The translations under genes were made by a program, and so were the position numbers. From Thermodesulfobacteriota bacterium (GTDB lineage Bacteria; Desulfobacterota; QYQD01), in NCBI GenBank assembly GCA_031082315.1, contig JAVHLC010000002.1, positions 147,362 through 211,361 on the forward strand: DNA of 64,000 nt. The letters are read 5' to 3'. Below are positions 1 through 26,224 of the stretch, piece after piece. The first letter of the stretch is position 1; each line of letters starts with the position of its first letter. Under the pieces are notes generated by a model. The model saw nothing but the letters and a program-made list of their open reading frames with translations, ran no database searches and had not been told where the DNA came from.

Positions 1-480
1 CCTGTGCGCGCCACTTCTAAAATCTCCCGGCTTATATCCGTGGCCATAATTTTTATTTTCCAGGACGGGTACTGCCCCCAGAACGTGTTCGTAGTAATGG
101 CTACGGTATATACCTCTTCACCGGTAGAGCAGCCGGCGCACCAGACAGCTAATCTTCTGACACCGTTTTTTTCTCCTTCTTGCAGAAGGTGGGGGAAAAC
201 TACATCATTTAGGAATTCGAAATGGTGTTTTTCTCTGTAGAAATGCGTGGTGTGAGTAGTTAAACAATCAACGGCCCTGGCCAGTTCGTTCTCAGCATCC
301 GGGGCATGCCGCAGATATTGAGTATAGGCATCGATCGATTTCAGCCCTAAGGATTTAAAACGGCTGTTTAATCTGGATGTGAATAACATCTCCTTATGTT
401 CAGGCAAAAAGATACCTGTTTTTTCTTCTATTAGTTTTTGGAGGGGCTTGAAGTTCGCCTCGGTCGAAGATACGCCTGGG
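1..480 (-). CDS. cheR: Chemotaxis protein methyltransferase CheR (partial; 3' part runs off window start; start codon not resolved, no in-frame ATG near expected N-terminus)
   Basis: Minus-strand translation gives FKPLQKLIEEKTGIFLPEHKEMLFTSRLNSRFKSLGLKSIDAYTQYLRHAPDAENELARAVDCLTTHTTHFYREKHHFEFL...RRLAVWCAGCSTGEEVYTVAI, matching the CheR all-alpha N-domain and the SAM-MTase motif (FFRE-like, AGCSTGEE). Sits directly downstream of cheW. The listed + ORF 4..240 is antisense to it. Confidence 0.6.
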
Positions 481-540
481 CGTGCGAATCTGCCCGTGGC
501 ATGACCCGCGTCGTTTTCTTCAGAAAGATCACGGCCGTCC

Positions 541-990
541 TTAAGCGGTTGCATCCAGTTCTTCCAATTCCTTTTCATCCAGAATTCGTTCCAGATCCAG
601 TAAGATGATTAAACGGTCACCCTGTTGGGCCACGGCTTTTATATATTCCGTCCGTATGGAAGGAGAAAGCCTGGGTGTAAGCAAGATTTCTGCCGGGCTG
701 AGCGAGATGACGTCTGAGGTAGTGTCTACGATAATGCCCATGATACGCCCCGCGATTTCCAGGACAAATATAACGGAAAATTTGTTGTATTCCTTTGGTG
801 GCAGATTAAACTTGAGCCTCAAGTCAAAGATGGGAAATATAACACCGCGCAAGTTAACCATCCCCTTTACAATATCTTTAACCCCGGGTACCCGGGTAAA
901 ACGGCGATAGCCGATGATTTCTCTTATCTTATTAATTTCTATCCCGTATTCTTCGTCATCAAGATAAAAGGTTATATACTGTTCTTCCAT
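541..990 (-). CDS. cheW: Chemotaxis coupling protein CheW
   Basis: 149 aa, single CheW-like domain (ITFYLDDEEYGIEINKIREI...GMVNLRGVIFPIFDLRLKF); lies in a che operon between an MCP gene and cheR. Confidence 0.85.
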   Translation of the reverse strand: MEEQYITFYLDDEEYGIEINKIREIIGYRRFTRVPGVKDIVKGMVNLRGVIFPIFDLRLKFNLPPKEYNKFSVIFVLEIAGRIMGIIVDTTSDVISLSPAEILLTPRLSPSIRTEYIKAVAQQGDRLIILLDLERILDEKELEELDATA

Positions 991-1005: not shown

Positions 1006-3313
1006 TTAGAATTCTTCAAAACCTTCCTCCATGTTGAGATCTGCTTCTTCCGGGGATATCTCTTTAAGCACGGCCTTTTGCAACATATCTTGACGTAAAG
1101 GCCTTTTTACCGGGGGCATAGTCCCCCTTTTTTCTCTCCCGGTGAGGGTTGCCGGAGTCAACGTCTCTTCCTCTATGGAATCTTCATCTGCCCCGGCCAC
1201 AGAAAATTCCTTGGTTAACTTTTTCAGGAGCGCGGCCTTAGCCGCCAGCGTTTGACTAGCGCCTGCTAATTGTTCAACCAGAGCGGCATTTTGCTGTACA
1301 ACATCCCCCATATCGGTAACAGCCTGATTCACTTGCTCAATACTGCGTGATTGTTCCTGAGTAGCCGCCGAGACCTCAGAAACGGCCTCGGACACGGCAG
1401 TGATGCATCCGGTTATCTTTTCCAGACTGCTGCCGGTTTGACCGACTAACTTATGGCTTTCTTCAATCTTAGCCATACTGTCATGGATGAGATTCTGTAT
1501 ATCTTTAGCTGCCTCCCCGCTTCTCTTGGAAAGATTGCGTATTTCCGTGGCTACCACCGCAAAACCGCGGCCGTGTTCACCGGCCCGGGCGGCCTCCACC
1601 GCGGCATTAAGGGCCAGGAGATTGGTCTGAAAGGTGATCTCGTTAACCAGGTCCATAATTTCTACAATTTTTTTGCTGGCGGTCCACACCTCAGTCATGG
1701 CATGGACCGTCTCTTTCACTACTGATGTTCCTTCCTGCGCCAGGGTCACGGATTCCTGAGCCAACTGGTTGACCTTCATGGTATTGGCAGCGTTCTGGCT
1801 GACATTGGCGGTCATTTGTTCGAGGGTGGCGCCGGCTTCTTCTATAGTGGCCGCCTGCTCCTGAGTCCGCTGCGACAGGTCCTGATTACCCGCGGAGATC
1901 TGATTTGTCCCCCGGGCCACAATTTCCGCAGTCCTTTTTGTCTGCTTTATGAGCGAGCCAATCTTCTCGAACATCTCGTTGACCTTGTCTGCCAGCCTGT
2001 CCATGAGGTCTTTTTTACCTATGGACTCTACTCTGGCCGTGAGATCTCCCCCGGCGGCCTTGTCCAGGACATTGAGCAGATTGTCCACCCGTCCTTCCAG
2101 ATACCGCCTTTGCTCCTCTTCCTTAGCGGCTGTTTCTTTGAGAATCTTTTCTGCCTCGACCCTGGCGGTAATGTCATGGAATATCTTGAAACCTCCCAGT
2201 ACCTTGCCGCTGGAGTCTTTAAGAACGGCGGCACTGGCCTCTATAGGAATAGTTTCCCCATGACGGTTAGTGATTTCACAATACACCCTTCCCCCCGCCT
2301 GGCCTGTTTCCATGCTTCTTTTTAATCCGCAGTCGGTCTTGCAGATGTTGCTGTTGAAGACGTTCCAGCACTTTACTTTGCCTTCCACTTCTTCTCTTTG
2401 GTATCCGGTTGTGGCCGCAGCGGCATCGTTCATATAGGTTATGGTAAGATCCGGATCGACAACGAAGAATGGATCGCTGATCCCGAGCTTCAGACTGTTC
2501 GCATATTCTATCCTGTCGCGCAGGTGTCGCAGCATGATATTGAAGTTTTTATTCAACGTCTCTATGGAGTCTTCGCCCCTCACCTCGATATTTACATCTA
2601 CGTCTCCTTCCGCTACCTGTTTTGCCTTATCGGCCAGATAGTGGATGCGCCGCGTGATGAGGCGGGTTATCAGATAGTTAAGGATTACAACCAAAGATAT
2701 GACTCCCAGCGCTCCGGCCATGATATACCGGTTTCTAAGAGAGGCAATAGAGGCATAATCAGCGGCTACGGATTGACGCACCACCAGAGAGCCCAGCACC
2801 CTTTTGGCCGGGGCATGGCAGTTGTAACAAGCCGGTTCATTAAGAATGGGATGAAAAATAAGGTTATATGGTTCGCCATTTATAGTCTGCAGGAATGGCC
2901 GTTTGGGATCAACGCCGGTAGAAAGTATATTGCTCAGGTTTTTTGTGAGTTCGGTATCCGCTAATAGATCCCCGAGCTTGGCCCCAACTGTTTCTTCATG
3001 ACTGGCATAGACTACGGTCTGGTCGGCATCCGTTATATAAACCTCTACCCCCTTCATGGCCGTTTTGATGTCCCTTAGTTGTTCCCTGACCGCGTCCATA
3101 TTACCGATGGCCATGGGGTGTTTTATCCCCGCGTGCGTCATGTCCGCCAGTTCCAGTTCAAACCGCGTCACTTTATTCAGGACATCCTCTCTATGACTAT
3201 TAACGCCAATGTATATAAGGACACCCGTAAAAAGCGCCGAGGTCAAGATTAGCGTGATCAGGATCTTGAAGCGCAAATTTTTGTTTATGTAGGATTGAAG
3301 GAACTTAAGCATG
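1006..3313 (-). CDS. Methyl-accepting chemotaxis protein with periplasmic c-type heme (CXXCH) sensor domain, HAMP, cytoplasmic PAS and MCP signalling domain
   Basis: Two TM helices flank a ~160-aa periplasmic region carrying a single CYNCH motif. C-terminal part carries methyl-accepting repeats ([31 protein letters not shown]...). Start reassigned to ATG at 3313 (MLKFLQSY), 24 nt after the cheA stop, with a G-rich RBS; the listed ORF start at 3408 would overlap cheA by 70 nt. Confidence 0.8.
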
Positions 3314-3337
3314 GGAATACCCCCCCTTTTTTTTGTT

Positions 3338-5479
3338 TCAATGGACTGGTTCATGGACCCGGCCTCGATCAAAAAATAGATGATCCAGACCATACACGTC
3401 CAGAACAAGGGCTACGCTGCCATCGGGCATAATAGCGCCCCCGGCAATCCCGGAAATTCTACAGAAATTTTTCTCCAGGTTTTTAATTACGACCTGCTGG
3501 TGATCGAGTATTTCGTCCACAACCAGGCCCAGGATCTTTTTTTCGCTACTTACAAAAACGACCAATGGTTCTGTATCTGTCTGCCGGCGGTCTATACCCA
3601 GGACTCTATCCAGGCGGATGAGCGGCACGCATGAGTCCCCCAAACGTATTACCTCACCCTTGCCTTCAATGGTCTTTAAGTTGCCTTTTTCAAGCTTGGC
3701 TGTGCTTAGAACGGTTAGCAAGGGTATGACAAAAATATCGTCCCCTATGCCAACATACATACCATCAATAACCGCCAGGGTTAAAGGGAGCTTTATGACG
3801 AAGGTAGCTCCTTTGCCTTTTTCGGAAAAGACATCGATCATCCCTCCCAATTGCTGAATGTTATTCTGTACTACGTCCATCCCTACCCCGCGGCCGGATA
3901 TGGAACTGATCTCTTTAGCAGTGGAAAATCCGGGGATAAATAGGAACTTGTAAATCTCTTCAGGCAAGGGCTGGTCGTTTTCTTTAATCAGGCCCTTTTC
4001 TATAGCCTTTCGCCGCACTGCTTCGGCGTCGATACCCCGGCCATCATCCTTAATTTCAATGTATATCTTGCCTTCCTGCTGGTAAGCATTAAGGCTGATG
4101 ATTCCCTCCGGGGATTTGCCCGACCGTTTCCTCTCCTCAGGGACTTCGATCCCGTGGTCAATGCAATTGCGTATCAGGTGCTTTAAGGGGTCGTTTATCT
4201 GTTCAATAACATCTTTGTCCAGTTCCGTTTCTCCTCCACCCAGGACAATCTTAACCTGCTTATGGTGCTCCCGGGCCAGGTCCCGGGCCATTCTTTGAAA
4301 CCTTTGAAATGTGCCTTCGATAGGAAACATGCGAAGACGCATAACCTGTTCCTGCACCTCCCGGCCGATCCTGTTCAGGATATCCGGCTCACCGCCCAAT
4401 TTTCTGGTGACATCCGGCGGCAAATTCCCCAGGATGGCGGAGATTCGCGCCATTTGTATGGTCATTTCTTCCACCATATTTGCGAGCTGGTCGAGCTTAT
4501 CTGTATCTACGCGTACCGTGGACTTACGCAGGACCGTCCGGCTTTTTTCCTGGAGGTCAACGATCTTGTTTAGTTCATCCGGAGAGATTTTGCCCTTTTC
4601 TAATAAAGCCTCCCCAACCTTTTTCTGCTGGGTGAGGACTTCTTGTATTTCCTGCTCGCTGACCAGTTTTTGATCAATTAATATCTCTCCCAGCGGCTTG
4701 TCAGCCATTCTGGTGTCCACCCCGTCCCGAAAATGTGATGATACGTCTCTTATGGAAACCTGGTTTAATTCATCTTCCTGGACAAAGACGAATACCTTTT
4801 CTATGGTGGGCAGGGGCCGGTCGGTTTTGATCAGGAGCCGCCAGGCAAGGTAAAGCTGAAAGGGGTCCATCTCCAGAAATGGCGGCAGAGAAGACAGGTC
4901 TGTCTCTACGGATATTATCTCAGCCAAATCTCCCAGTTCATACAGCAGCATCAGCGGATCCTGTCCGGTCTGGAAGATGTCCTTGCGAAAGCGCATATCA
5001 ATCTCGTAATAAGATCCCTTGGAGGATTCCTTCTGGCCGCCGGACATGCCGGTAGTTATCGGCGCAGTTGCCCGGCCTTCTTCTTGTTCTGCGGCTAGGC
5101 CCATGAACCGTTTTACTTTTTCGGCCATGGACGAAAAGGCATCCAGCCCTGCGTCCGGCTTTCCCTGGGAAGCATTTTCCACCGCCGATTTTATAACATC
5201 ATGGTTTTCCAGGAGAAAGGAGACCAGGTTTTGGGTTATAGGCAGTTGTTTGCTGCGTATCCTTTCCATGAGGTTTTCCAGGAGATGGGCGTGTTCAGAG
5301 AGCTGGGTAAAGCCGACCATAGCCGAGCTGCTCTTCATAGTGTGCATCGCCCGGAAGACCTCGTTAATAACGGACTGATTTTGCGGATCGGATTCTAAGG
5401 TCATCAGGCCGTGTTCCATGTTTTGCAACAATTCTTCCGCTTCTGAAAAATATATCTGTAAAAGCTCGTCCTGTTCCAT
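3338..5479 (-). CDS. cheA: Chemotaxis histidine kinase CheA
   Basis: 713 aa; N-terminal Hpt domain (FRAMHTMKSSSAMVGF), dimerization and HATPase_c regions (GRGVGMDVV), C-terminal CheW-like domain. Confidence 0.9.
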   Translation of the reverse strand: MEQDELLQIYFSEAEELLQNMEHGLMTLESDPQNQSVINEVFRAMHTMKSSSAMVGFTQLSEHAHLLENLMERIRSKQLPITQNLVSFLLENHDVIKSAVENASQGKPDAGLDAFSSMAEKVKRFMGLAAEQEEGRATAPITTGMSGGQKESSKGSYYEIDMRFRKDIFQTGQDPLMLLYELGDLAEIISVETDLSSLPPFLEMDPFQLYLAWRLLIKTDRPLPTIEKVFVFVQEDELNQVSIRDVSSHFRDGVDTRMADKPLGEILIDQKLVSEQEIQEVLTQQKKVGEALLEKGKISPDELNKIVDLQEKSRTVLRKSTVRVDTDKLDQLANMVEEMTIQMARISAILGNLPPDVTRKLGGEPDILNRIGREVQEQVMRLRMFPIEGTFQRFQRMARDLAREHHKQVKIVLGGGETELDKDVIEQINDPLKHLIRNCIDHGIEVPEERKRSGKSPEGIISLNAYQQEGKIYIEIKDDGRGIDAEAVRRKAIEKGLIKENDQPLPEEIYKFLFIPGFSTAKEISSISGRGVGMDVVQNNIQQLGGMIDVFSEKGKGATFVIKLPLTLAVIDGMYVGIGDDIFVIPLLTVLSTAKLEKGNLKTIEGKGEVIRLGDSCVPLIRLDRVLGIDRRQTDTEPLVVFVSSEKKILGLVVDEILDHQQVVIKNLEKNFCRISGIAGGAIMPDGSVALVLDVYGLDHLFFDRGRVHEPVH

Positions 5480-5488: not shown

Positions 5489-5866
5489 TCAACGAACAAA
5501 CTTTCTTACGACCCAGAGGAGTTGTTCCGGCCGGAAAGGTTTCAAGAGCCAGCCGGCGGCTCCGGCAGACTTTCCTCTCAATTTCTGCGCCTCTTGTGAT
5601 TCGGTGGTCAGAACAAGAATCGGGATAAACTTCCAGTTTGTTTTTTTGACTTCTTTTATAAAGGTTATGCCGTCCATTTCGGGCATATTCACGTCTGAGA
5701 TAATCAACGCCGGCGGCTTTTTTTGGGACTCCATCTCTTGCAGCCTGACGAGCCCGTCCTTGCCGTTCACAGCCTCGGATACCCTATATCCGGCGTTGTT
5801 CAGGCAAAAAGAGATGCTGGCGCGCAGAGTGGGTGAATCATCAACTACCAGGACATGTTTTTCCAT
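5489..5866 (-). CDS. cheY: CheY-like response regulator (receiver domain only)
   Basis: VLVVDDSPTLR...DVNMPEMDG...K receiver motifs. Start set to the internal ATG at 5866 (MEKHVLVVDD), preceded by AGGTGGA; the listed start at 5920 would overlap the STAS gene. Confidence 0.8.
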   Translation of the reverse strand: MEKHVLVVDDSPTLRASISFCLNNAGYRVSEAVNGKDGLVRLQEMESQKKPPALIISDVNMPEMDGITFIKEVKKTNWKFIPILVLTTESQEAQKLRGKSAGAAGWLLKPFRPEQLLWVVRKFVR

Positions 5867-5877: not shown

Positions 5878-6180
5878 CTATTCTTTCAGGATCATCTGTT
5901 TGACCCCGATTATTTCCCAAACCTTTTCCAAGTCGGGCGGTATATTTTTAATGGTCAGCCTGTGACCTTCGGTAAGAGATTTTTTGAAGGCTATCAGTAC
6001 CTGTATAGCCGCTGTATCCATCTGCACGACTTCCTGACAGTCTATAGTCAGATCCTGCTCCAGCACAAACCGATCCTTCAGGCACTCATATAAGTCGTCA
6101 AGATGGTGGACGCCTATCTCGCCACGCAACTTAATAATGCCTTCTGCCTGTTCCTGACATGGAGAATACGCATCAGCCAT
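5878..6180 (-). CDS. STAS-domain protein (anti-sigma-factor antagonist-like), first gene of the che operon
   Basis: 100 aa with a STAS-like pattern (…DLTIDCQEVVQMDTAAIQVLIAFKKSL…); no other domain. Confidence 0.55.
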   Translation of the reverse strand: MADAYSPCQEQAEGIIKLRGEIGVHHLDDLYECLKDRFVLEQDLTIDCQEVVQMDTAAIQVLIAFKKSLTEGHRLTIKNIPPDLEKVWEIIGVKQMILKE

Positions 6181-6626
6181 TGAATTCTCGCAGTCTTACA
6201 TTTCTAATGGTTCATTATGGCTTTTCGGCTAATGGGAGGACTTACTTAAACGAAAAGGGGGTTTTTTCTATCTCAGTTTACGGGGACGGACGTGGGGTAA
6301 AATAAAAGCTGTATTCTCGGTCATCCATATTCAAAGTCCGTATTTATTTCAGGCTCTTTTGTTATTAGCCATACGTGCCGATCTGTTAAACTAATGAGCG
6401 CCCCCACTTAGTCAGGTATAAGGTCTTCGAAGGGAAATACCCGGATCAAAAACTTGCTTGCAGGAATATTACAGGAGTAGCTATCCAATATTGAAGCTCC
6501 CCGCAGCAAGCTGCGGGAAATGCGCTCGCTATGCATGTTCAAGAAAAAACACAGAAGAGTGGGGGCACTATGAACGCTCTACACGAACGTACGCACATGG
6601 ACGGAAAAGGAGGAAAAGAGGAAAAA

Positions 6627-7046
6627 ATGGACATAACGATCTTGTTAGCCGATGATTCAAAGTTGGTTCAAGCCAAGTTCAGGTTGGCACTGGAAAAGGC
6701 AGGGTTTCAAGTTATCAGTGCCCTCGACGGCAAAGAAGGGCTGAGTATTGCCAGGGAAAAGAAGCCGGATCTCATTATCCTGGATGTGAATATGCCGGGG
6801 ATGGACGGTTGGCAGGTCCTTCGCTCTTTAAAGATTCATCCTGAATTGCGCAAGATACCCGTCATTATGGCTACGACTGCGGACAAGATTGCCGACATAG
6901 AACGGGGTTTTTCTCTGGGCGCAAAAGAATACGTCGTCAAGGACGAGCAACTCACCCGTTTGGTCGACAAGGTTGAAAAAGTGATGGCAAGCCAGAAACC
7001 TGAGACAAAAGTTGAAGGGAGCTGGGTAAAAAAAATGTTCTCGTAA
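6627..7046 (+). CDS. Stand-alone response regulator (receiver domain)
   Basis: MDITILLADDSKLV...DVNMPGMDGWQVL...K receiver signature. Start chosen at the ATG at 6627, preceded by GGAAAAGAGG; the listed ORF begins upstream at 6531. Confidence 0.7.
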   Translation: MDITILLADDSKLVQAKFRLALEKAGFQVISALDGKEGLSIAREKKPDLIILDVNMPGMDGWQVLRSLKIHPELRKIPVIMATTADKIADIERGFSLGAKEYVVKDEQLTRLVDKVEKVMASQKPETKVEGSWVKKMFS

Positions 7047-7702
7047 GACTTCGTCTGAAGAGTAACCAAGGGATTGCCTTAGAAACAAGCTCGTTTGATA
7101 CACGTCTAAAGGCCTGCAATCCCCCCACCAGTTTCGGCCGACGAGCTTGATCCCGGCTGGTTTCTGCATAGGAAAGGTAACGCCTTCTCGCCAAAACAGG
7201 ACAGCACATATTTTGTACCCTGCGAGGAGCCGCCTTCGAAGTGATCGAGACCGAGCCTTTTTTCATCGGCCGAAGACTAGAAAACACTATATCTCTATGT
7301 AACGCCCGTCCATACAAAAAAGCAATGCACCGGCTGTTTTTCGCACTATGGTCCGGGTGCAGCGTCAGCTCAGGTTCCGCTTTGGGGTGTCGCCGGAGAA
7401 AAGGCCCGCGGACAATCTGACAAATGTGCCTGAATCCAAACAGGTAGCATCATAAGGGGGTGTGGCATGGGAACAATTGTTCTCTTTTAGTGGAATTGTT
7501 TTTCCACTGGTCCAATCCCTTTCTCCCTCTGTCGCGGTAATCGTCTTAGCCATCATTTCCATTGACAACGTAATAACAACATGTTAGCGTCTTTCGGTAA
7601 TGTCCATGCCATTGGCACTCCATTTGCATTAGCTACGATTCATCGACGTCGTCAGCTTTACCGTGTAAAGCAGCATCCGCAGGCCGCCTCAGGAGTAGCA
7701 TT

Positions 7703-8872
7703 ATGGTCATGCCCAAGGACCGGACGAAATCAGGCATCAAGATACCCCGGCAAAAGGCACTCACATTCGCGGCGACTTTAATCTTTTCCCTTGTCCTGAT
7801 CCTATCGCTCCCACCCGCCGCTTCCGCCAGAGTGACGGGACCATGTGCCAACTGCCACACCATGCACAACAGTCAGGGGGGACTTCCGGTAGCGCCCGGA
7901 GGCCCCTACGGCCAACTACTGGTAGGCGACTGTGTGGGCTGCCATTCTGCCACCGACGGCGCGACCTGGAAAGATCCGGTAACCGGCGCTCCTATTGTCA
8001 ATAATACCGGCCAGCCCTCCTACGGCAGTCAAGGTCTCGCCGGCGGGAATTTCTATTGGGTAACGGTAAGCGACGGGAACGGGCACAACGTGTTTCCGGC
8101 TAATCCCGATGACGTCCTGATGAGCGCCCCCGGGGAAGCGTACGTAGGCGGCGGCTGTGGCACAAACGTTTGCCATAGCAATCTCCATCTTCCTTTTCAG
8201 ACTTCTTCCGAATTCGAGCCCATTCATGGCTACCTGAACGGGCGATCCGGCTGCACCGGCTGCCATATGGTATCCGGCTTCAACAAGTTCAGTCAAATCA
8301 AGAGTTGGCATCATACCAGTGTTACAGATGGGGTGGCGGATAGCGCTGCAGAGGGATGGTACCGGTTTCTGTCGGGCCATTTCAGCGGTTACCAGTACGG
8401 AGTCGCAGGCATAGAGGATGGCGACTGGCAATACACCAGCAGTGCCAGTGACCATAATGAGTACCTGGGTAAGCAGGTCGCCAGCGGGACTGGTGGTTTC
8501 GTCTCCATAGCAGGGAACACGGCCACGGCCTTCTGCTGTGGCTGTCACGGAAATTTCCACATCAAGAGACAGGGAGGGGCCTGGATACGACACCCCGTAG
8601 ATCGTAAGATACCGGCGTCCGGTGAATACGCCGACGCTTTCGGTGCCGCCACCGGCACCGCGACGTATGACCCCATCGTCCCCGTAGCCCGACCCACACT
8701 CGCCGCGGTCAGTGACACGGTAACCATAGGCACGGACATGGTCATGTGTCTCTCCTGCCATAGGGCCCACGCCAGCCCCTATCCTGACATGCTTCGATGG
8801 GACTACGCGACTATCCAGGCCGACGGTGGAGGAACCGGCGGCTGCTTCCAATGTCACACGAGCAAGAATTAG
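7703..8872 (+). CDS. OmcS-family multiheme c-type cytochrome (nanowire-type outer-surface cytochrome), paralog 1
   Basis: Signal peptide, then CANCHTMHNSQGG (OmcS N-terminus is ...CEGCHTMHNS...). Also CVGCH, CGTNVCH (CX4CH), CTGCH, CCGCH, CLSCHRAHAS (as in OmcS CLSCHRAHASGFDSM) and C-terminal CFQCHTSKN. Low heme density and a Gly/Ser/Thr-rich sequence. Confidence 0.75.
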   Translation: MVMPKDRTKSGIKIPRQKALTFAATLIFSLVLILSLPPAASARVTGPCANCHTMHNSQGGLPVAPGGPYGQLLVGDCVGCHSATDGATWKDPVTGAPIVNNTGQPSYGSQGLAGGNFYWVTVSDGNGHNVFPANPDDVLMSAPGEAYVGGGCGTNVCHSNLHLPFQTSSEFEPIHGYLNGRSGCTGCHMVSGFNKFSQIKSWHHTSVTDGVADSAAEGWYRFLSGHFSGYQYGVAGIEDGDWQYTSSASDHNEYLGKQVASGTGGFVSIAGNTATAFCCGCHGNFHIKRQGGAWIRHPVDRKIPASGEYADAFGAATGTATYDPIVPVARPTLAAVSDTVTIGTDMVMCLSCHRAHASPYPDMLRWDYATIQADGGGTGGCFQCHTSKN

Positions 8873-13881: not shown

Positions 13882-14229
13882 CTAAGCCTGCTGAGGCGCT
13901 GCGCCCTCTTCCTTCTTCTTTTTCTTCTTGGGCTTGGCTTCGGGGGGCGGCGCGGCGACTTTCTTTGCCTTGGAGGTCTCTTCCTTGGGCCTTGCCAAGC
14001 GCTCCGCCTTGATCGTGGCCAACTCCGCCGTTCGCTTCTCCGTGGCGTCGATCGCCCGCAAACGGGCCTGCGATTCCTTGATCTTTGCCTTCAATCCCTT
14101 GACGAGCACATCGCGCGCGATCTTTTTCTTGTCCGCCCCCTTCTCCGCAAGAAGCGCCAGACGCTTCTGCAACTTCACTTCCCATTCGGCCTTCTGTTTC
14201 AGCCGCGTTTCCCTGCGTTCGGATGCCAT
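13882..14229 (-). CDS. Hypothetical lysine-rich coiled-coil protein (115 aa; C-terminal AKPKKKKKKEEG tail)
   Basis: Coding-like composition; highly basic with KAK repeats; no recognisable domain. Confidence 0.45.
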   Translation of the reverse strand: MASERRETRLKQKAEWEVKLQKRLALLAEKGADKKKIARDVLVKGLKAKIKESQARLRAIDATEKRTAELATIKAERLARPKEETSKAKKVAAPPPEAKPKKKKKKEEGAAPQQA

Positions 14230-14613
14230 TGGTTTCTCCTTTTTGGTTTTTCCGTGTCGGGTATCTTCACTGTTTCCTCATCATCGTGCCCGGAGACGGA
14301 AGTTACCTCTTACCAGAATTTCCGCCGAAAATCCAGTTAATTTGGCCGGCCGTCATAAGGAGCCAAACACCCAATCTCTTTGACCTTGTACCGGGATTGA
14401 AGTTCGGGGGTCAGTGGGCTACAGTCAATGCTGCATTGAGCATATATCTCGCTGATTTTTTGATAGAACCGCCTTTCAGAAGCCCGTATCTCGCGGTATT
14501 ATCTTTCCTGTAACAACCTCTTCTGCGGATCACAGCAGACGAGAAATGCCTGTTGTTCTAAAAGTGATAATTTTCAAGAATGTCCCGGTGTCCCTCCCGA
14601 GTGAGTCTATCTA

Positions 14614-14802
14614 TTAAAGGGTTGCGGTCTTTTTTTCTGCGCGCATACGATCCCTGATCTTCTTGGCCCTATCAGGCATGGCATAATAGAAAAACTCCAT
14701 TTGCGCCTCAAGCCACTTGATCTTTTGAAGAGCCGGCCGCTTCCGGTACTCTTTTATCTGCTCTATCGTCCTATAATATAACAGTGGCGTTTTATTCATC
14801 AC
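14614..14802 (-). CDS. Small protein (62 aa) overlapping the upstream nucleotidyltransferase gene by 11 nt; possible partner of a toxin-antitoxin-like pair
   Basis: MMNKTPLLYYRTIEQIKEYRKRPALQKIKWLEAQMEFFYYAMPDRAKKIRDRMRAEKK; operonic overlap with the NTase gene. Confidence 0.35.
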   Translation of the reverse strand: MMNKTPLLYYRTIEQIKEYRKRPALQKIKWLEAQMEFFYYAMPDRAKKIRDRMRAEKKTATL

Positions 14803-15301
14803 CCCACTCCTTTTCTATCTTTCTAAGATAATAGACATCGGCAATATCTTGAGGTCTGCCGACCTTCTTCTTCATCTCAATAAGCCGTTTTATAGGGACA
14901 AGTGGAATCCTCACATTTCCAGCCTTGATATTTTTCCGTTCTCCATAAACCTTATCAAAGTCAAACGGTTCCTCTACAAATACATCCAATAGGAAATATG
15001 GATTCTGCGGGTCATAAACGCTGAAAACCTTCATCCCCTTTTCACGAACCCACTTGTCCCTCATCTCCTTACTGCACAGATCTTCAAGTTTCACCGGAAT
15101 TTTGGGCCTGAAGCCTAACTCCTTCATGACCTCCACAAACTTTTCAAGATTATGCCGCTCCAGATGAACAACGATATCTATATCGCCTGTGGCTCGTTCA
15201 ATCCCATAAAGATTGACAGCCACTCCACCGGCGACGAGATAGCGAACCTTCTTATTGTTCAGGGTTGAAAACAGGTTAAGGATGTTTAATTTATCGCTCA
15301 T
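14792..15301 (-). CDS. Pol-beta-superfamily nucleotidyltransferase-fold protein (MNT-like)
   Basis: GG...G-x9-TGDIDIVV (GS...DxD NTase signature); 169 aa; preceded by a 41-nt leader identical to the one before the AlbA_2 gene. Confidence 0.6.
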   Translation of the reverse strand: MSDKLNILNLFSTLNNKKVRYLVAGGVAVNLYGIERATGDIDIVVHLERHNLEKFVEVMKELGFRPKIPVKLEDLCSKEMRDKWVREKGMKVFSVYDPQNPYFLLDVFVEEPFDFDKVYGERKNIKAGNVRIPLVPIKRLIEMKKKVGRPQDIADVYYLRKIEKEWGDE

Positions 15302-15395
15302 ATCGTCTTAAAGTCCATACCTTCTACGAACGTTTCAATACCGGTCATTGCCTCCAGGATATTTTTCAGGTAGTTCCAGTTTAGGAAATGTCATT

Positions 15396-16766
15396 TCATT
15401 TTTTCACCACTTCCCAATAGCCACCCTTGTCCGGGCCGATGCGCTTGAGAACTCCTTTTTTCCTAAGTCTGGTTATATGGTATTTTACTCCGTCTTCGGT
15501 TATCCCTATAACCGTTGCAAGTTCTTTTTGAGTAATATCTGATTTCTTAGTAATAGCTTCTATGATTTTCTGGGTAGTTTTCTGGGTAGTTTTCTGGGTA
15601 ATATCTTCTACCCCTTTTTCACCCAACTTTTCAAATCCTTTCTTGCCCTCAAAATAACTCCTACGCTTAAAAGTAGTAATAAACTTTGTCCCTACCTCGC
15701 TGAATTCAGTATCAGGTTCTTTTGAGAGCATAAGCTTGATACCCCTGCCCCATTTCTCTATGAAATGAACACGATGAAGCATCTCTGCAATCAGCTCGTT
15801 TCTTCTTTCTGAGACCATCTTTGTCCTGATGGTCTCTATGGTCAGCCCACCATAAAGCAGCCCCGGGCTCCTTATTTCAACACGATCTTTAAAAACAGCG
15901 ATGTTAACAGAATCAAACTCCCGGTAATCCCTATGGCAGAAGGCATTGATTATTGCTTCTCTGAAAGCCGCCTTGTCAATTTCAGGCACATCTACCCTTC
16001 TTAACCCTTCCAGCTTCATGCCGATATGAATATTTTTCAGGATGTATCCTTCGGCTTTTTCGATCAGGTAGAAGAGATCTCCTTCAAAATCCTGCATATC
16101 AATGGTAAACGATGTGTCTGTTGTGCCGAAAACAGCGCATCTGAGACGGGCATTGGGGAAAAATGCCTGCGGTTTTTTGGCAAATAAGATTACGGCTGCA
16201 TTGAGGGGCTTACCGTCAGACATGAGCTTTAATTTTTCAAGCGCATTGCGTACAGTGTCATATTTCAGCACTGAACCTTTCAAAAAAGATTTGACTTTAG
16301 TTGCGCTTATGTCTGTGATCTTTGCTTCTTTGCAAATTTCGGTATCCCATCTTAATTTATCCTTATTCTTTCCGAGAATCAGCCCTTCGAGTTCTTTAGC
16401 GCTTAATTGCCGGTCTTCATCCGCCACCCTTATATATGCCCTGCCATATGCAAAATAGGGAATATCGTTACCCTTAAACCGGACTTTAATACATGCCTTG
16501 CCGTCTATTTCGATACGGTTTATGTGAGGATAGATTTTGGGTTCAATATGGTCTGCAATGGATTTTGATACATCACGGATTGTTTTTTCCGTTACGTTCT
16601 GACCGGCTACAATGCCATTGTTTTTAATTCCAAAAAATAATTCTCCGTGTTGATGTTTATTGAGAATTGCCGCTATAGATATGATCGCCTCTTTAATCTC
16701 AGAAGTAGATTTTTTAAGTTCCAATGTTTCAGATTCAATAAATTTCATATTAAGCTTACGACTCAT
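15396..16766 (-). CDS. Schlafen/AlbA_2-type divergent AAA ATPase with C-terminal HATPase-like and wHTH regions (RecG-C-terminal-like 'putative transcriptional regulator' family)
   Basis: 456 aa; N-terminal region resembling an AlbA_2 fold (…ELKKSTSEIKEAIISIAAILNKHQHGELFFGIKNNGIVAGQ…). Internal tandem repeat TQKTTQKTTQK from three 12-bp DNA repeats at about 15570-15605. C-terminal HTH (ITQKELATVIGITEDGVKYHITRLRKKG). Confidence 0.55.
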   Translation of the reverse strand: MSRKLNMKFIESETLELKKSTSEIKEAIISIAAILNKHQHGELFFGIKNNGIVAGQNVTEKTIRDVSKSIADHIEPKIYPHINRIEIDGKACIKVRFKGNDIPYFAYGRAYIRVADEDRQLSAKELEGLILGKNKDKLRWDTEICKEAKITDISATKVKSFLKGSVLKYDTVRNALEKLKLMSDGKPLNAAVILFAKKPQAFFPNARLRCAVFGTTDTSFTIDMQDFEGDLFYLIEKAEGYILKNIHIGMKLEGLRRVDVPEIDKAAFREAIINAFCHRDYREFDSVNIAVFKDRVEIRSPGLLYGGLTIETIRTKMVSERRNELIAEMLHRVHFIEKWGRGIKLMLSKEPDTEFSEVGTKFITTFKRRSYFEGKKGFEKLGEKGVEDITQKTTQKTTQKIIEAITKKSDITQKELATVIGITEDGVKYHITRLRKKGVLKRIGPDKGGYWEVVKK

Positions 16767-16852
16767 ATCGTCTTAAAGTCCATACCTTCTACGAACGTTT
16801 CAATAGAAGAATTTTATGATCATCTCCCCTCTTCCCGCCTGTCGATGGAGCT

Positions 16853-17713
16853 TCAATTACTTAAGGACGGCTCGGCGCACCCTCCGTCTAGGTCGTAGTT
16901 CGCAATTGCCAATTCAGTCGTGATTTGGCGCTTGCAAACTACTGCTGCCAGCACGCTGTGCCGACGCAGCACGGCATAGTTCCATTCCGCAGCGGAATAG
17001 AGCCTCTTGATGCTGGGCGAGTCCGCATTTGACACGAGGACCAAAGCCCCCCGCCTGGAGGCTTCGCCAACAGCAGCCGCAAGGCGTTCCTGGTCTTCCC
17101 AGCAAAAAAGGCGTTCATTGTACTTAATGAAATTGTTCTGGTTGTGCTGGACCGTGTATGGAGGATCTACGTAAACGAAGTCACCTGCACCTGCTTCATA
17201 CAGCACTTCTTCAAAGTCACCACAGACTAAATGCGCAGACCGTAACGCATTCGCGACCGTTGAGAAATCATCATCGGGGAATGTGACAGTATCCTTGGTT
17301 CCTTTTGGCACGTTGAAAACGCCTTGCCTATTCACACGATAGAGGCCATTGAAACAAGTCCTGTTTAAGTAGATAAATCTGGCCGCACGAGAAGCAGCAG
17401 TTCTCGGCTTGCTGGTGCGGATCCGGTAGTAGTGTTCCTTACTGTGACGCTGCCGATGCCATAGAAGTCTCTCCCATACCAATCGCCAGTCGTCCCGTAT
17501 TGCGTAGTATGTCTCAATAAGGTCGTGATTCGCATCGCTGAGATAAGCATGACTAGGGCATAGGCCGAAAAAGACAGCCCCACTACCCAAAAACGGCTCG
17601 AAATACCGGTTGTATGACTTAGGAAAAACCGTACGGTGGTCAGACACAAGCCACCTCTTGCCTCCCGCCCATTTTAAGAATGGTTTCACACGCTGCCGGG
17701 TGTCCACAGTCAT
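16853..17713 (-). CDS. DNA N6-adenine methyltransferase, Dam/D12 class
   Basis: KWAGGKRWL (SAM-binding motif I), EPFLGSGAV, DPPY (catalytic motif IV); 286 aa. Confidence 0.85.
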   Translation of the reverse strand: MTVDTRQRVKPFLKWAGGKRWLVSDHRTVFPKSYNRYFEPFLGSGAVFFGLCPSHAYLSDANHDLIETYYAIRDDWRLVWERLLWHRQRHSKEHYYRIRTSKPRTAASRAARFIYLNRTCFNGLYRVNRQGVFNVPKGTKDTVTFPDDDFSTVANALRSAHLVCGDFEEVLYEAGAGDFVYVDPPYTVQHNQNNFIKYNERLFCWEDQERLAAAVGEASRRGALVLVSNADSPSIKRLYSAAEWNYAVLRRHSVLAAVVCKRQITTELAIANYDLDGGCAEPSLSN

Positions 17714-20028: not shown

Positions 20029-20389
20029 ATTCGTTACCCCTCAGTACGGCGGCGAATCTTATATAGATTCCACTTTTATCATCAAAACTCGTATATCTTA
20101 GTGATCATATTATAATTTAGATAGTGAACGTCTATAAAATTATAACTTATTATTTTACTGATAGCTCAAGCCCCTTTCTCTCTGGCGCCCTGCTCTTTGG
20201 CCATCTATTTCCCTGGTTTAATTACCTGAACGGCTCGTTTACTATAAATCCGGCAGAAATCAGCCAGCCTGTTTATTAGGATTAAATGAACCTGGCAAGG
20301 AATATCACGAAAAGAAATGGATGGTCAAGGAGATTTGCTGCGGCAACTATTTGAAGGCAAGGCGTGGAGAAGGCGGCTGCCTGGAGACG

Positions 20390-21369: not shown

Positions 21370-22170
21370 TTAATTTATATAGCTGTGCAGGCCGGAGAGA
21401 AGGAAATTGACGCCAAAATACGTAAAGAGCACTGATACAAAGCCGCCAATGGAGAGCAGGGCGATCTTTTTGCCATGCCACCCGCGCAGACGGACATGAA
21501 GAATGATCGCATAGACGAACCACGTAATCAGAGACCAGGTTTCTTTAGGGTCCCATTGCCAGTAGGCCCCCCAGGCCGAGTGTGCCCAGATGGAACCGGT
21601 TGCGATGCCGGCGGTAAGAAACAGAAAACCAAAGACAATCACCCGATAGTTAAGGGTATCCAGGTCTTTTTTGTCATCGGATCTTTTAAACAGGTATGCT
21701 ATGCTCAGGCCACAGGAAACAGCGAATGCGCCATAACCAATAAAGCAGGTGATGACATGGGCAATGAGCCAGTTGCTCTGCAAGGCCGGGACAAGCGGTT
21801 CAATGCGGCTTGAAATAGTCGGTGAAAACGAGGCGTAGGCCAGACCAAGGAAGGCAAAAGGTACGGTGAACACGCCTGCGTGGGCGAGTTTATACTTATA
21901 TTCAGCAATAAAATGGATCAAAATTATTGCCCAGGCAAAGAAGACCAGGGACTCATAAAAATTGGCAAATGGGGCATGGCCGATCCCGAGGTTGTGGGAT
22001 TCAACCCAGCGTAAAATAATAGCAGCGGTATGTGCAACAAAGGTGCCTATAGTGACAACCGAAGCGATCCTCTGGCCGATTTTTGTCTTAAAGATCAGGG
22101 CGCTCAGATAAAATATCACTGCCGCAAGATAGCTGAACGTTACGACAGCGAGAATTTTCGAACTCAGCAT
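21370..22170 (-). CDS. ccsA: Cytochrome c biogenesis protein CcsA (System II heme lyase subunit)
   Basis: WGAYWQWDPKETWSLITWFVYA is the tryptophan-rich WWD domain; multi-pass membrane protein; immediately downstream of resB. Confidence 0.8.
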   Translation of the reverse strand: MLSSKILAVVTFSYLAAVIFYLSALIFKTKIGQRIASVVTIGTFVAHTAAIILRWVESHNLGIGHAPFANFYESLVFFAWAIILIHFIAEYKYKLAHAGVFTVPFAFLGLAYASFSPTISSRIEPLVPALQSNWLIAHVITCFIGYGAFAVSCGLSIAYLFKRSDDKKDLDTLNYRVIVFGFLFLTAGIATGSIWAHSAWGAYWQWDPKETWSLITWFVYAIILHVRLRGWHGKKIALLSIGGFVSVLFTYFGVNFLLSGLHSYIN

Positions 22171-22188
22171 GGCCGTCCGTTTCCCCTT

Positions 22189-23559
22189 TTATTTTATATC
22201 GGCTTTCTGGAGTCGCAGGTAGAGATTATCAAGCCTTTCTTCCAGCCCCAGTTTGTTTTTATTTGTCTGGCCGCCGATGGTAACCGTTGTCCCCTCGCCT
22301 TTTTTCTCCAGCACAGCCCATATCTTACGGTGTGACATGAAAAAGGTCACGGCAATTCCCAATACCATTAATATACTGCCGGCCCAGACAAAGAGGATGC
22401 CCGGTTCCTTGGCTACCTGGAGGCCGGTGTAGAAACCTTCCCTTACCTCGGTTACGAGAAATCGGTACGGTAATTTCTTGGCCCGTCCAAAGTCCGGGTT
22501 GTTTTTGAATATCCAAAGGTCGGTTTGTCCTCCATCGGGTCTGGTCAACAGCATCTGAACCGCGGGGCCCATATCCATCACATTCGGCTCAACCCGTAAT
22601 GAACGAAGAGTACCCAGCCCATCAGGCAAAATGGCCTCCTGGCCGAATGGAACAGAAAGCGGAATGATTTTCCCGCTGCTTTTATCAACCAGATTAAGTT
22701 CAATCGTCTTTGGGAAGCGACCGTAAGAGGCCTGATAAAAAGTGATACCTCTGTACGTAAGGGGCTGGTTGACCCGGATGTTGCCGTTCAAAACCGGCTT
22801 CCCGTTTTCGATAATGGTTATGTCGCTGCGGTAATCCCTTGGTTCGCCGGTGGGATAAAACTGGGCCTCAAACTTATCAACGCGGAGGGCAAAGCCCAGA
22901 TTATAGCCTACGTTAGTATTAGGCAGGGGAACCTGTTCCACCACCGCCCCTTCCGGCAGATTAATGCTGGTCATGAACCCGCCCAGAGAGCTCGCTATCC
23001 CGGCAATATAGAAAATAACGACGCTAAGATGCACGACATAGACCCCGAGACGGGATAATCTTCCCTTTTCCCGCCAGAGAATTGTTGTTGAGCCGGTGGT
23101 AGTCTCGTTCAGATCGCCCAGCCTACCTGAAAGAATGGGCAAGAGCGCGGCCTTAACCACGGAAGGGTTCGCTTTATATTTTAAGGCCCTCGTCCCTGGA
23201 CTGGCCAGGACAGCGTTTTCGTTAAGCCTCTTTTCTTTTGGGAAAACAATATCCCAGACATGCCGGAGCCTGTCCGTAGTACAGACAATCAGGTTCAGCG
23301 CCAGGAGAAGGAGAAGGAGTCTAAACCACCCCGAATGATAGAGGTCCAGCAGAGACAACGAATCCAAAAGCTGGTAAGTGCCATACCCATACCGCTGAAC
23401 ATACATGGCGGGAGGCTCATTTTGAGGGATAAGCGTCCCGACAATAGAGCTTACCGCGAGAAATATAAGTAAGAATATGGTGAGGTTAACTGAAGCGAGA
23501 GATTTCCAGAAAGGTTGTTTTTTTTCGGGTGGCGCTGGGAGGCTGTTTTCCGGCTTCAT
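22189..23559 (-). CDS. ccsB: Cytochrome c biogenesis protein ResB/CcsB (System II)
   Basis: 456 aa; N-terminal TM, large periplasmic domain and C-terminal TM; adjacent to ccsA. Confidence 0.75.
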   Translation of the reverse strand: MKPENSLPAPPEKKQPFWKSLASVNLTIFLLIFLAVSSIVGTLIPQNEPPAMYVQRYGYGTYQLLDSLSLLDLYHSGWFRLLLLLLALNLIVCTTDRLRHVWDIVFPKEKRLNENAVLASPGTRALKYKANPSVVKAALLPILSGRLGDLNETTTGSTTILWREKGRLSRLGVYVVHLSVVIFYIAGIASSLGGFMTSINLPEGAVVEQVPLPNTNVGYNLGFALRVDKFEAQFYPTGEPRDYRSDITIIENGKPVLNGNIRVNQPLTYRGITFYQASYGRFPKTIELNLVDKSSGKIIPLSVPFGQEAILPDGLGTLRSLRVEPNVMDMGPAVQMLLTRPDGGQTDLWIFKNNPDFGRAKKLPYRFLVTEVREGFYTGLQVAKEPGILFVWAGSILMVLGIAVTFFMSHRKIWAVLEKKGEGTTVTIGGQTNKNKLGLEERLDNLYLRLQKADIK

Positions 23560-23760
23560 GTCATTGTATCTCAGAGGGTTATTAAGGTGTCATAACTAAC
23601 GGAAATCCTGTAAAGACTACCCAAAAACAGTCCATTCATTAACATCCCTGTCCCCCGCTTGTCAAGGATTTTATAGCCTCCACTGCTTACGGTTGACACC
23701 ATCCCAAAAAGAAAGGCGACCTAATGGTCGCCTTTCCAGGTTTATCTCCTGATATTACCC

Positions 23761-24684
23761 TTACCTGGGCATAGCGTGGGCAGTATTATGGCAGTCACCA
23801 CACTTTTTGAAGCCCTTAAGCAAAGTCGGACTATGCGGCTGGCCATGGCAGGCCTCGCACTGGATAATATCCCGATGTTTGGGATGGCATTTGGCACAAC
23901 TTAGTTGATCGTGCTTGGACTGGCTCTTCTGGAGATCCTGCAGGGCCTTGGGATGGCATGCCCCACAGGTATCGCGTGGTGTTTCGAGCGGATACGTGAT
24001 CACCAGTGGCATGTGCACCGGGTGGCAGCTTAAGCACTCGGCATTGGTCTGGGTCGGTGTATGCGGTGAATGACAATCGGCACAAACCGGAATATGACGG
24101 TGCACGGTATGGCAGTCGGAACACGCCACGTCTGTATGTTTACTCTTATGGGTCTTAAGCTCGTCGGCTACCTTGCCGTGACAGGTGGAACATCCGGCAT
24201 CCATGTCCGGGCCGGCCATCTTGCCCGTCGGCGCATGTGGGTTGGCGTGGCAGGCAGCGCAGTTAGCCAGTTTATCACCGTGAGCCAGTCCGTGACAGGT
24301 GTTGCATTTAGGCATAATGTCTTCGTATTTGACCTTGTCCGGACGGTACACGTGGTATTTCTCATGACATTTGGTGCAATCGATCTGGTGCTTTCCGCCT
24401 TCATTGCGGATGGTATTGTAATAATACAAATGGCACTGACCGCACTGCTCTGTCTTTAGGGGCGATATCTCCCTTTCATACAGCGGCGCTATCTTGGCCT
24501 TGGCCTTAGCCGGCGCTGCCACTACCGCTGGCGCCTCCGCCGGGGCCGGCATAATAGTTATGGTGCTTTCTCCCGAAATAGTCCCCGGGGCCGGTACCGT
24601 TACTACACGCTGCTCCGCGCAACCCCAAATAACTGCGATAAGCAGTAATACTAACCCCCCAAAGGCTACCAGCAATCTTTTCAT
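23761..24684 (-). CDS. Dodecaheme c-type cytochrome (12 CXXCH; GSU1996-like tandem c7-type domains)
   Basis: Signal peptide plus twelve CXXCH motifs in about 280 mature residues (CGQCH, CTKCH, CNTCH, CAACH, CSTCH, CSDCH, CADCH, CLSCH, CGACH, CAKCH, CEACH, CGDCH). Confidence 0.85.
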   Translation of the reverse strand: MKRLLVAFGGLVLLLIAVIWGCAEQRVVTVPAPGTISGESTITIMPAPAEAPAVVAAPAKAKAKIAPLYEREISPLKTEQCGQCHLYYYNTIRNEGGKHQIDCTKCHEKYHVYRPDKVKYEDIMPKCNTCHGLAHGDKLANCAACHANPHAPTGKMAGPDMDAGCSTCHGKVADELKTHKSKHTDVACSDCHTVHRHIPVCADCHSPHTPTQTNAECLSCHPVHMPLVITYPLETPRDTCGACHPKALQDLQKSQSKHDQLSCAKCHPKHRDIIQCEACHGQPHSPTLLKGFKKCGDCHNTAHAMPR

Positions 24685-24760
24685 TGTCCACCTCTCATAA
24701 CTAAACCTTGGAGGGGCGCCTTGGGGCGCCCCTTATCGCTTACGTATCAGCCCAAACGGC

Positions 24761-26149: not shown

Positions 26150-26193
26150 AGGGGCAAAAACAAGGCGGGATGGGTATAGATACCCATCCCGCC
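26150..26193 (-). terminator. Intrinsic terminator after the OmcS-like gene (perfect hairpin GGCGGGATGGGTAT/ATACCCATCCCGCC, then U-rich tract on the minus strand)
   Basis: Inverted repeat 26164-26193; minus-strand continuation TTGTTTTTGCCCC. Confidence 0.55.
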
Positions 26194-26224
26194 CGGGTTA
26201 ATTATCTTATCTTTACAACCAAGA

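Follow-up and report, generated by a model that had tools for sequence, protein, structure and literature searches.

Periplasmic sensors that carry c-type haem are known from DcrA of Desulfovibrio vulgaris Hildenborough, from GSU0582 and GSU0935 of Geobacter sulfurreducens (PDB 3B47 and 3B42, respectively), and from the wider sCache_heme family, and the outputs that they control are poorly understood. Both Geobacter sensors, with potentials of -156 and -251 mV, hold a haem that is in the high-spin state with His/water ligation in the oxidised form and turns low spin, with His/Met60 ligation, on reduction; they also bind NO and CO reversibly with displacement of Met60 (PMC8396549). The domain family to which these two proteins belong has been moved from the "PAS-like" domains to the haem-containing single Cache domains (sCache_heme), which are defined by the insertion of a short helix with a CXXCH motif between strands of the single-Cache fold and in which CXXCH is >99% conserved (PMC12889525). 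A different kind of redox sensor is found in OrpR of D. vulgaris, whose PAS domain holds a [4Fe-4S] cluster and in which C52, C61, and C65 are required for redox sensing (PMC8359166). Here, we describe a methyl-accepting chemotaxis protein (MCP) encoded in a stretch of 64,000 nucleotides (the window) of contig JAVHLC010000002.1 from a Thermodesulfobacteriota bacterium (GCA_031082315.1), in which the domain order is TM1 (transmembrane segment 1), sCache_heme, TM2, HAMP1, PAS with three conserved cysteines, HAMP2, a 36-heptad (36H) signalling domain, a linker, and the pentapeptide GFEEF. The protein is a transmembrane chemoreceptor of the 36H class that probably has a redox cofactor on either side of the membrane. 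Taken as a whole, we consider it reasonably likely that a receptor with a haem-c Cache domain and an iron-sulfur (Fe-S) PAS domain feeds an operon for cyclic di-GMP (c-di-GMP) signalling.

Profile and fold comparisons place the TM1-TM2 loop of ∼160 residues clearly, as a divergent member, in the haem-c single-Cache family of GSU0582, GSU0935, and Tll0287. The initial annotation had reported a single CYNCH motif between the two transmembrane segments, and this is borne out, as residues 162-166 form the sole CXXCH of the MCP, C162 and C165 are the sole cysteines of the periplasmic loop, and the peptide quoted at the time, PILNEPACYNCHAPAKRVL, is present in the protein as given. Because a HAMP domain follows TM2 directly and the N-terminus is rich in K and R, the loop can be placed in the periplasm, and hydropathy puts CYNCH on the same side, in agreement with the topology then expected. 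An exhaustive phmmer/HMMER search of 1.84 billion representatives recovered 251 relatives of the domain at E ≤ 1e-3, and CXXCH, mostly as CxHCH, occurs at the same position in all 144 homologues that are long enough to judge; the motif (CYNCH or CYSCH) is likewise invariant as CXXCH in the orthologue alignment, and a word-indexed protein search with the periplasmic domain gave one match, to a close fragment. At residue 164 (window 2821-2823), Asn is found here and Ser in the orthologous locus L003 (CYSCH), where 84% of the family has His. A chance origin of the motif was considered and rejected, since it is conserved in 144/144 homologues and arises in only 0.04% of shuffles of the loop composition.

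Searched against the PDB as a single sequence, the periplasmic domain retrieves 3b42 (GSU0935) first (E = 0.068) and 3b47 (GSU0582) second (E = 0.43), which are weak scores, but the alignment is in register over P-x-x-N-E-x-x-C-x-x-C-H and sets CYNCH on the CQSCH of both Geobacter proteins. A profile of 40 relatives matches 3b42 at E = 1.4e-13, with 137 of 159 positions covered, and 3b47 at E = 7e-11. The Pfam family PF21563 (Mcp40H-20_sensor) matches all 40 aligned members (best members' E = 3.7e-12), and PF11845 (Tll0287-like) matches 38 of them. In the AlphaFold2 (AF2) model of the domain, which has a predicted local distance difference test score (pLDDT) of 95.3, a long N-terminal helix is joined to a five-stranded sheet, and the motif (domain positions 125-129) is entered from a helix at 123-125 and lies between strands at 102-107 and 110-120 on one side and a strand at 135-144 on the other. 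Foldseek with this model returns 3b42_B (GSU0935) as the top match, followed by the Cache domains of WalK, DctB, and PctD. The crystal structures of GSU0582 and GSU0935 are domain-swapped dimers (PMC3460858), and a low TM-score to GSU0935 is therefore to be expected. The likeness to GSU0582/GSU0935 suggested in the initial annotation is thus upheld by the profile E-values, by PF21563, and by the Foldseek ranking, while the term PAS-like that accompanied it has been superseded by sCache_heme (PMC12889525).

The MCP and the two Geobacter receptors share a periplasmic domain of the same fold between two transmembrane segments, a single CXXCH in the same structural position, and a Met equivalent to Met60, and differ in that identity is ∼20% and the domain of the MCP is ∼25 residues longer. 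The Geobacter receptors are annotated as 40H class in the name of PF21563, whereas the MCP is a 36H receptor with a HAMP-PAS-HAMP arrangement, a tether, and a che operon of its own. To our knowledge, the GSU0582 and GSU0935 receptors have no cytoplasmic PAS domain. DcrA has in common with the MCP a periplasmic haem c, a cytoplasmic PAS domain, and a host from the Desulfobacterota (PMC8396549). The commonest CXXCH variant in the family of the MCP is CHHCH. CHHCH is also the motif of DcrA, the haem-c MCP of Fu et al. (1994), and at 668 residues DcrA is ∼100 residues shorter than the MCP.

A covalent haem on the extracytoplasmic side of the MCP is predicted and almost certainly present. Apart from the MCP gene, seven open reading frames (ORFs) in the window encode 2-12 CXXCH motifs each, and these ORFs together with the System II maturation genes for ResB and CcsA indicate that the host is able to mature periplasmic c-type haem proteins; the cytochrome-rich genomic context is real. 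The candidate distal ligand, Met67 (profile position 30), is matched in the alignment by M26 of the 3b42 chain, and M26 corresponds to Met60 of GSU0935 in the numbering where His144 is chain residue H110 (numbering from PMC8396549). Met67 is invariant in the orthologues, and across the family the position is occupied by Met in 68% of members. By analogy with the Geobacter proteins, the System II products encoded in the window would join the haem to C162 and C165, H166 would serve as the proximal ligand, and the reduced haem would have as its distal ligand Met67, which lies at the end of a long N-terminal helix extending from TM1. On oxidation, or when NO or CO takes its place, Met67 would be freed and the haem would go from low spin to high spin, and this spin switch would shift the helix and send a signal through TM2 and HAMP1. 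A spin/ligand switch of the GSU0582/GSU0935 type is the most economical model for the haem of the MCP.

The initial annotation had also drawn attention to an unusual cysteine cluster in the cytoplasmic PAS domain. The cluster is present (C315, C324, C328, and C345), and three of its four cysteines are conserved: C315, C324, and C328 do not vary among 5 orthologues and 11 distant relatives, while C345, in the sequence YCEI, is variable in the five orthologues. The pattern C-x8-C-x3-C is produced by 0.18% of shuffled PAS sequences, and it is less unusual than first thought, as its spacing is identical to that of C52, C61, and C65 in OrpR. The distance from the start of the PAS domain is also similar in the two proteins, whereas OrpR is soluble with its PAS domain at the N-terminus, and the PAS domain of the MCP lies between two HAMP domains of a membrane receptor. 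Because the triad matches that of OrpR, a redox-sensitive Fe-S cluster is the most likely occupant of the PAS domain, although we give only about even chances to such a putative Fe-S cluster being there. Placed between the two HAMP domains, such a PAS domain would allow the receptor to integrate the cytoplasmic with the periplasmic redox state.

In the AF2 model of the PAS domain (pLDDT 91), the triad spans the E-alpha/F-alpha segment on the pocket side, and C315 aligns with the pocket-lining position of the photoactive Cys of phototropin LOV domains. The Foldseek neighbours of the model are cofactor-binding PAS domains, including DosP and LOV; a LOV-like flavin PAS was considered and rejected, because the motif around C315 is KCWNVF and not NCRFLQ. 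A word-indexed search with the PAS domain gave no matches, and a search with the PAS profile gave four, of which one was relevant. Among the 150 family representatives listed, a PAS domain follows HAMP1 in 15, and 11 of these 15 have the triad. The outputs of the 11 triad proteins vary, as they include MCPs, histidine kinases (P0007, P0018, and P0029), and a sigma-54 AAA+ activator (P0033), and the unit of sCache_heme, HAMP, and three-Cys PAS can for this reason be regarded as a portable module. In P0033, as in the sigma-54 activator OrpR, the PAS domain is coupled to a sigma-54 output, here an AAA+ domain joined to a PAS domain of the MCP type. A second cysteine motif, CW(E/Q/H)(Y/F)xxCGxxSC, was observed in P0005, P0007, P0021, and P0029 at residues ∼578-781, near the C-terminus in P0021 and P0029.

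Downstream of the PAS domain, residues 409-722 of the MCP align with residues 222-535 of Escherichia coli Tsr without insertions or deletions in the bundle and with one-residue gaps confined to the HAMP connector and the C-terminal tail, and among NCBIfam models, Aer2 is the one that the signalling domain matches best. The C-terminal GFEEF fits the tether motif x-[HFYW]-xx-[HFYW], as defined in PMC7184735, and adaptation would take place by methylation with CheR tethered through this pentapeptide.

The initial annotation placed the receptor in a che operon led by a STAS-domain gene, and this arrangement is found as described, with genes for STAS, CheY, CheA, MCP, CheW, and CheR in the window. 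In the orthologous loci L002-L005, cheR is followed by genes for CheD, CheB, and a REC-GGDEF protein, and the same che arrangement surrounds relatives that are 30-48% identical in the sensor domain (L007, L008, L009/L010, and L011). The operon is thus conserved in L002-L005 and L007-L011, an F7-type order is seen in the window, L001-L005, and L008-L011, and all seven loci whose sequence extends to the end of the operon (L002, L003, L004, L005, L007, L008, and L010) have a REC-GGDEF gene. The GGEEF motif of the L004 REC-GGDEF protein is intact, and the protein also has an RxxD I-site. The order of the conserved operon is STAS, CheY, CheA, MCP, CheW, CheR, CheD, CheB, and REC-GGDEF, with the MCP as the single dedicated input. 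A scan for sigma-70 promoters and terminators upstream of the operon gave nothing above chance. Phospho-CheA would pass its phosphoryl group to CheY and to the REC-GGDEF diguanylate cyclase, and the output would then likely be c-di-GMP, so that redox or electron-acceptor conditions would guide decisions on attachment or biofilm formation, whether or not motility is affected as well.

Several described systems resemble this operon in part. Ancestral "stage 1 F7" clusters have the order anti-sigma-antagonist, cheY, cheA, cheW, dedicated 36H MCP, cheR, cheD, and cheB (PMC7184735). The stage 1/2 F7 clusters, such as Vibrio cholerae cluster III, Pseudomonas aeruginosa Che2, and Shewanella oneidensis Che1, share with the present operon the gene order, a receptor with PAS and HAMP domains, and the tether, whereas here there is one cheW and not two, it is placed after the MCP gene, and a REC-GGDEF gene stands at the end. 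An mcpA-like receptor, a second STAS protein, and a phosphatase were not seen in the operons of the MCP type, and REC-GGDEF occupies their place. Aer2, from F7 clusters with gammaproteobacterial hosts, is cytoplasmic with a haem-b PAS domain, whereas the MCP, from a host in the Thermodesulfobacteriota, spans the membrane and combines a haem-c Cache domain with a Cys-triad PAS domain. The Pseudomonas Wsp system (WspR) and the Geobacter Esn system (EsnABCD) resemble the operon in joining an MCP-CheW-CheA module to a REC-GGDEF regulator. WspE, the kinase of Wsp, is a hybrid of CheA and REC, and Wsp is not known to include CheY, CheD, or a STAS protein. The hybrid kinase of Wsp has no counterpart in the present operon, where CheA lacks a REC domain and a CheY of 125 residues is encoded upstream. 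Esn is needed for electrode colonisation in Geobacter, a cytochrome-rich metal reducer (PMC5585712); in contrast to the MCP, EsnA lacks a periplasmic domain and carries a GAF domain in the cytoplasm, and esnD is not linked with the rest of the esn genes. Because of the F7-like features of the cluster, the REC-GGDEF gene in 7/7 informative loci, and the Wsp and Esn precedents, c-di-GMP signalling under redox or gas control is at least as likely an output as taxis.

A number of points weigh against the reading of the MCP as a haem-c and Fe-S receptor that feeds c-di-GMP synthesis. Everything said here on haem and Fe-S in the protein is deduced from sequence, and the homology of the loop to sCache_heme is secure at the profile level only, as the window sequence alone scores 22.9 bits against PF21563, for which the gathering threshold is 27 bits. 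The motif is CYNCH or CYSCH in the lineage of the window as opposed to CxHCH in 84% of the family, and Leu takes the position of Met67 in 31% of the family. The score under the Pfam threshold and the presence of only one motif would also suit a CXXCH that is fortuitous or does not bind haem, for example a thiol-disulfide pair in an ordinary ligand-binding Cache domain, but this is very improbable in view of a motif that is found in every one of the 144 homologues and is aligned in register with the CQSCH that binds haem in two crystal structures, a chance expectation of 4e-4, and the >99% conservation of CXXCH given in the family definition. A further objection is that signalling-linked sCache_heme members have been argued to be NO rather than redox sensors in a 2026 preprint, where a membrane-bound sCache_heme-HAMP protein binds NO with a slow, sensor-like off-rate and without a stable O2 complex (PMC12889525). 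The periplasmic haem of the MCP could accordingly sense a gas, chiefly NO and possibly CO, and not the redox potential, with the ligand displacing the distal Met and switching the receptor, and the reversible binding of NO and CO by GSU0582/GSU0935 with displacement of Met60 (PMC8396549) points in the same direction. We regard this as somewhat unlikely, since the NO-binding protein that was tested has no distal ligand from the protein whereas the MCP keeps the equivalent of Met60, the Geobacter sensors have a redox-linked spin/ligand switch at -156 and -251 mV, and a gene for a secreted tetrahaem cytochrome directly upstream of the MCP gene in two distant relatives suggests an electron-transfer partner. 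Gas sensing and redox sensing are not mutually exclusive, and the two signals are inseparable by sequence alone.

On the cytoplasmic side, the link to OrpR is limited to the spacing and position of the motif, and the conserved Asp/Glu that OrpR has two positions past the first Cys is Asn317 in the MCP (N, D, D, K, and S in the five orthologues; acidic in 8/12 sequences of alignment A5, with 7/11 among the distant representatives). The triad may accordingly hold Zn or another metal, act as a thiol-disulfide switch, or be structural, and Asn317 would fit with this, as would the conservation of only three cysteines with no invariant fourth ligand found, the failure of PDB sequence and fold searches to find a solved PAS structure with the triad, and the existence of Zn-binding cytoplasmic PAS domains such as that of WalK. 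A triad without Fe-S is nevertheless the less probable case in our judgement, because its spacing is identical to that of the experimentally supported [4Fe-4S] triad of OrpR, the Desulfovibrio host of OrpR belongs to the same broad group as the hosts of the receptor family (Desulfovibrionales and metagenome-assembled genomes of Thermodesulfobacteriota), P0033 fuses the same module to a sigma-54 activator, and coordination of Fe-S by three cysteines in a PAS domain has been solved structurally for NreB, where the spacing is different; a fourth ligand could come from Ser321, which is nearly invariant, or from an Asp that is often found, both shortly before the second Cys. As for the output, the window ends within cheR, so that REC-GGDEF is assigned to its operon from orthologues whose MCPs are 69-92% identical, and the CheY encoded in the operon leaves control of motility possible. 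The initial annotation had favoured redox or energy taxis, and a classical receptor of this type, with the haem c reporting periplasmic redox and CheA-CheY steering the flagellar motor as proposed for DcrA and GSU0582/GSU0935, would agree with the stand-alone CheY and the full adaptation set of CheR, CheD, and CheB, with the dependence of DcrA methylation on haem redox (PMC2886117), and with Geobacter models in which movement is controlled over specific redox ranges (PMC8396549). The taxis element itself is doubtful, and we judge it rather unlikely, because the gene order, the STAS protein, the tethered 36H receptor, and CheD match the stage 1 F7 clusters (PMC7184735). The operon ends in REC-GGDEF in 7/7 informative loci, and flagellar genes are absent from the 64-kb window. 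What stage 1 F7 clusters did before they gained control of flagella is reportedly unclear.

The coordinates of the receptor, its domains, and the associated genes are given in Table 1. The MCP gene is enclosed in a longer ORF (1006..3408, reverse strand), and its start was placed at the ATG at 3312, with a GGGGGG ribosome-binding site 9 nucleotides upstream and the cheA stop codon 25 nucleotides before the ATG. The same start, MLK..., is found in the five orthologues and in the NCBI-annotated relatives, all of 769 residues. The initial annotation had the gene right and its end (3313) wrong by one base; the two flanking transmembrane segments also stand, and only their numbering (46-68 and 225-250) does not, as it was taken from a longer 800-residue ORF with a TTG start. 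Pfam matches in the MCP comprise HAMP (214-266), PAS (278-385), and MCPsignal (516-671).

Table 1. Positions in the window of the receptor, its domains and motifs, and associated genes.
Feature	Position	Strand	Description	Evidence
MCP coding sequence	1006..3312	-	768 aa	ORF and start; Pfam HAMP/PAS/MCPsignal; orthologue alignment
TM1	3202..3270	-	Residues ∼15-37, preceded by K/R-rich N-terminus	Kyte-Doolittle hydropathy
Periplasmic haem-c single-Cache domain (sCache_heme)	2725..3201	-	Residues 38-196	phmmer; profile; PF21563; AF2; Foldseek
Met67, candidate distal haem ligand	3112..3114	-	In conserved HPM motif	Profile alignment with 3b42
CYNCH haem-attachment motif	2815..2829	-	C162, C165; H166 as predicted proximal ligand; short helix between beta strands	DSSP of AF2 model
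TM2	2656..2724	-	Residues ∼197-219; merges straight into HAMP	Hydropathy
HAMP1	2515..2673	-	Residues 214-266	Pfam PF00672, E = 2e-15
Cytoplasmic PAS	2158..2481	-	Residues 278-385	Pfam PAS_9, E = 6.5e-16; AF2 pLDDT 91
Cys triad C315-x8-C324-x3-C328, putative Fe-S ligands	2329..2370	-	E-alpha/F-alpha region of PAS	
HAMP2	1948..2100	-	Residues ∼405-455	Aligns with Tsr HAMP and Af1503-HAMP/Tsr chimera; Aer2 HAMP match
36-heptad signalling/adaptation bundle	1198..1947	-	Residues ∼456-705	Conserved Tsr-like methylation motifs
GFEEF C-terminal pentapeptide, probable CheR/CheB tether	1009..1023	-	After variable linker of ∼55 residues	
STAS gene (anti-sigma-factor-antagonist-like)	5878..6180	-	First gene of operon	Pfam STAS, STAS_2; NCBIfam
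CheY	5489..5866	-	125 aa from internal ATG	Pfam Response_reg; orthologue length
CheA	3338..5479	-	Hpt, dimerisation, HATPase_c, CheW-like; no REC	Pfam
CheW	541..990	-		Pfam
CheR	1..554	-	N-terminal 184 residues; cut at base 1 of window	Orthologous loci; Pfam on L004
System II cytochrome c maturation genes	21370..23559	-	ResB 22189..23559; CcsA 21370..22170	Pfam E = 1.5e-94 (ResB); Cytochrom_C_asm E = 8e-53 (CcsA)

In the loci of two distant relatives, L007 (1364-1804) and L011 (2908-3390), orthologous genes for a secreted tetrahaem (c554-like) cytochrome of 146-160 residues lie between cheA and the gene of the haem MCP; this cytochrome is a possible dedicated redox partner of the sensor, and no orthologue of it was found in the window. 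A hexahaem cytochrome gene (7703-8872, forward strand) adjoins the che operon in the window and occupies the same place in L002, with 91% identity, and an exact sigma-54 -24/-12 consensus, TGGCAC-N5-TTGCA, lies ∼75 nucleotides upstream of it (7613-7628, forward strand). No match to the hexahaem cytochrome was found in L001 or L004, where the gaps between PrfC and STAS are too short for the gene, and paralogues occur in the window at 26225-27493 and from 63478 to the window end. Three multihaem cytochrome genes (5, 12, and 12 CXXCH motifs) are followed directly by those for ResB and CcsA (21370-27493, reverse strand), and a haem-biosynthesis cluster (40543-43527, reverse strand) encodes HemA (glutamyl-tRNA reductase), a second CcsA-like Cytochrom_C_asm protein, and a sirohaem-synthase-like NAD-binding protein.

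Divergent from the che operon, a stand-alone receiver-domain protein of 171 residues is encoded at 6531-7046 (forward strand), with a copy of 88% identity in L004; no match above the filter was found in L001, L002, L003, or L005, and in L002 the gap between PrfC and STAS holds the hexahaem cytochrome gene. A second MCP of 798 residues, which lacks CXXCH, is encoded at 45874-50953 (reverse strand) with Peripla_BP_6 genes on both sides. A region at ∼14000-20100 has a low GC content (0.45 vs ∼0.51 elsewhere) and encodes a Schlafen/AlbA_2-HATPase_c_4-HTH protein, a D12 N6-adenine methyltransferase, and a DndB-like protein of 772 residues, and it resembles a defence or restriction island. A second exact sigma-54 consensus (52434-52449, forward strand) lies ∼250 nucleotides upstream of an ORF of 447 residues (52700-54043, forward strand), and neither this ORF nor a nearby one of 506 residues (55459-56979, forward strand) has a Pfam match.

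The sensor domain of the MCP is already a known kind, and the plan of the receptor, with periplasmic haem c and a cytoplasmic PAS domain, is that of DcrA. In the literature examined, an OrpR-type triad in a PAS domain that follows a haem domain is not described, nor is the association of the triad PAS domain with the haem domain across different outputs, nor an F7-like operon that ends in a cyclase. The conserved wiring of the locus comprises a haem-c Cache domain and an OrpR-like Cys-triad PAS domain together with an F7-like Che core and a cyclase of the REC-GGDEF type. No earlier family of chemoreceptors with redox cofactors on both sides of the membrane is known to us, and the present one would be the first should both cofactors be confirmed. 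If the assignments of the Fe-S cluster and the cyclase fail, the MCP would be one further member of the sCache_heme MCP family. More speculatively, and with little confidence, the unit of sCache_heme, HAMP, and Cys-triad PAS could be viewed as a portable two-compartment redox comparator, in which a haem c poised by periplasmic cytochromes and a cytoplasmic Fe-S cluster would couple electron flow to c-di-GMP synthesis; poising by the cytochrome pool would fit with the tetrahaem cytochrome gene that adjoins the receptor gene in some relatives. Confirmation of both cofactors would also suggest a function for the cytoplasmic PAS domain behind the haem domain in DcrA-type receptors and would provide a concrete route by which uncultured sulfate or metal reducers rich in cytochromes could link their respiratory or redox state to c-di-GMP, with a bearing on how such bacteria choose to colonise minerals or electrodes. 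Should the comparator also prove true, cytochrome-rich Desulfobacterota would have a direct link between the availability of electron acceptors and the commitment to a surface or biofilm.

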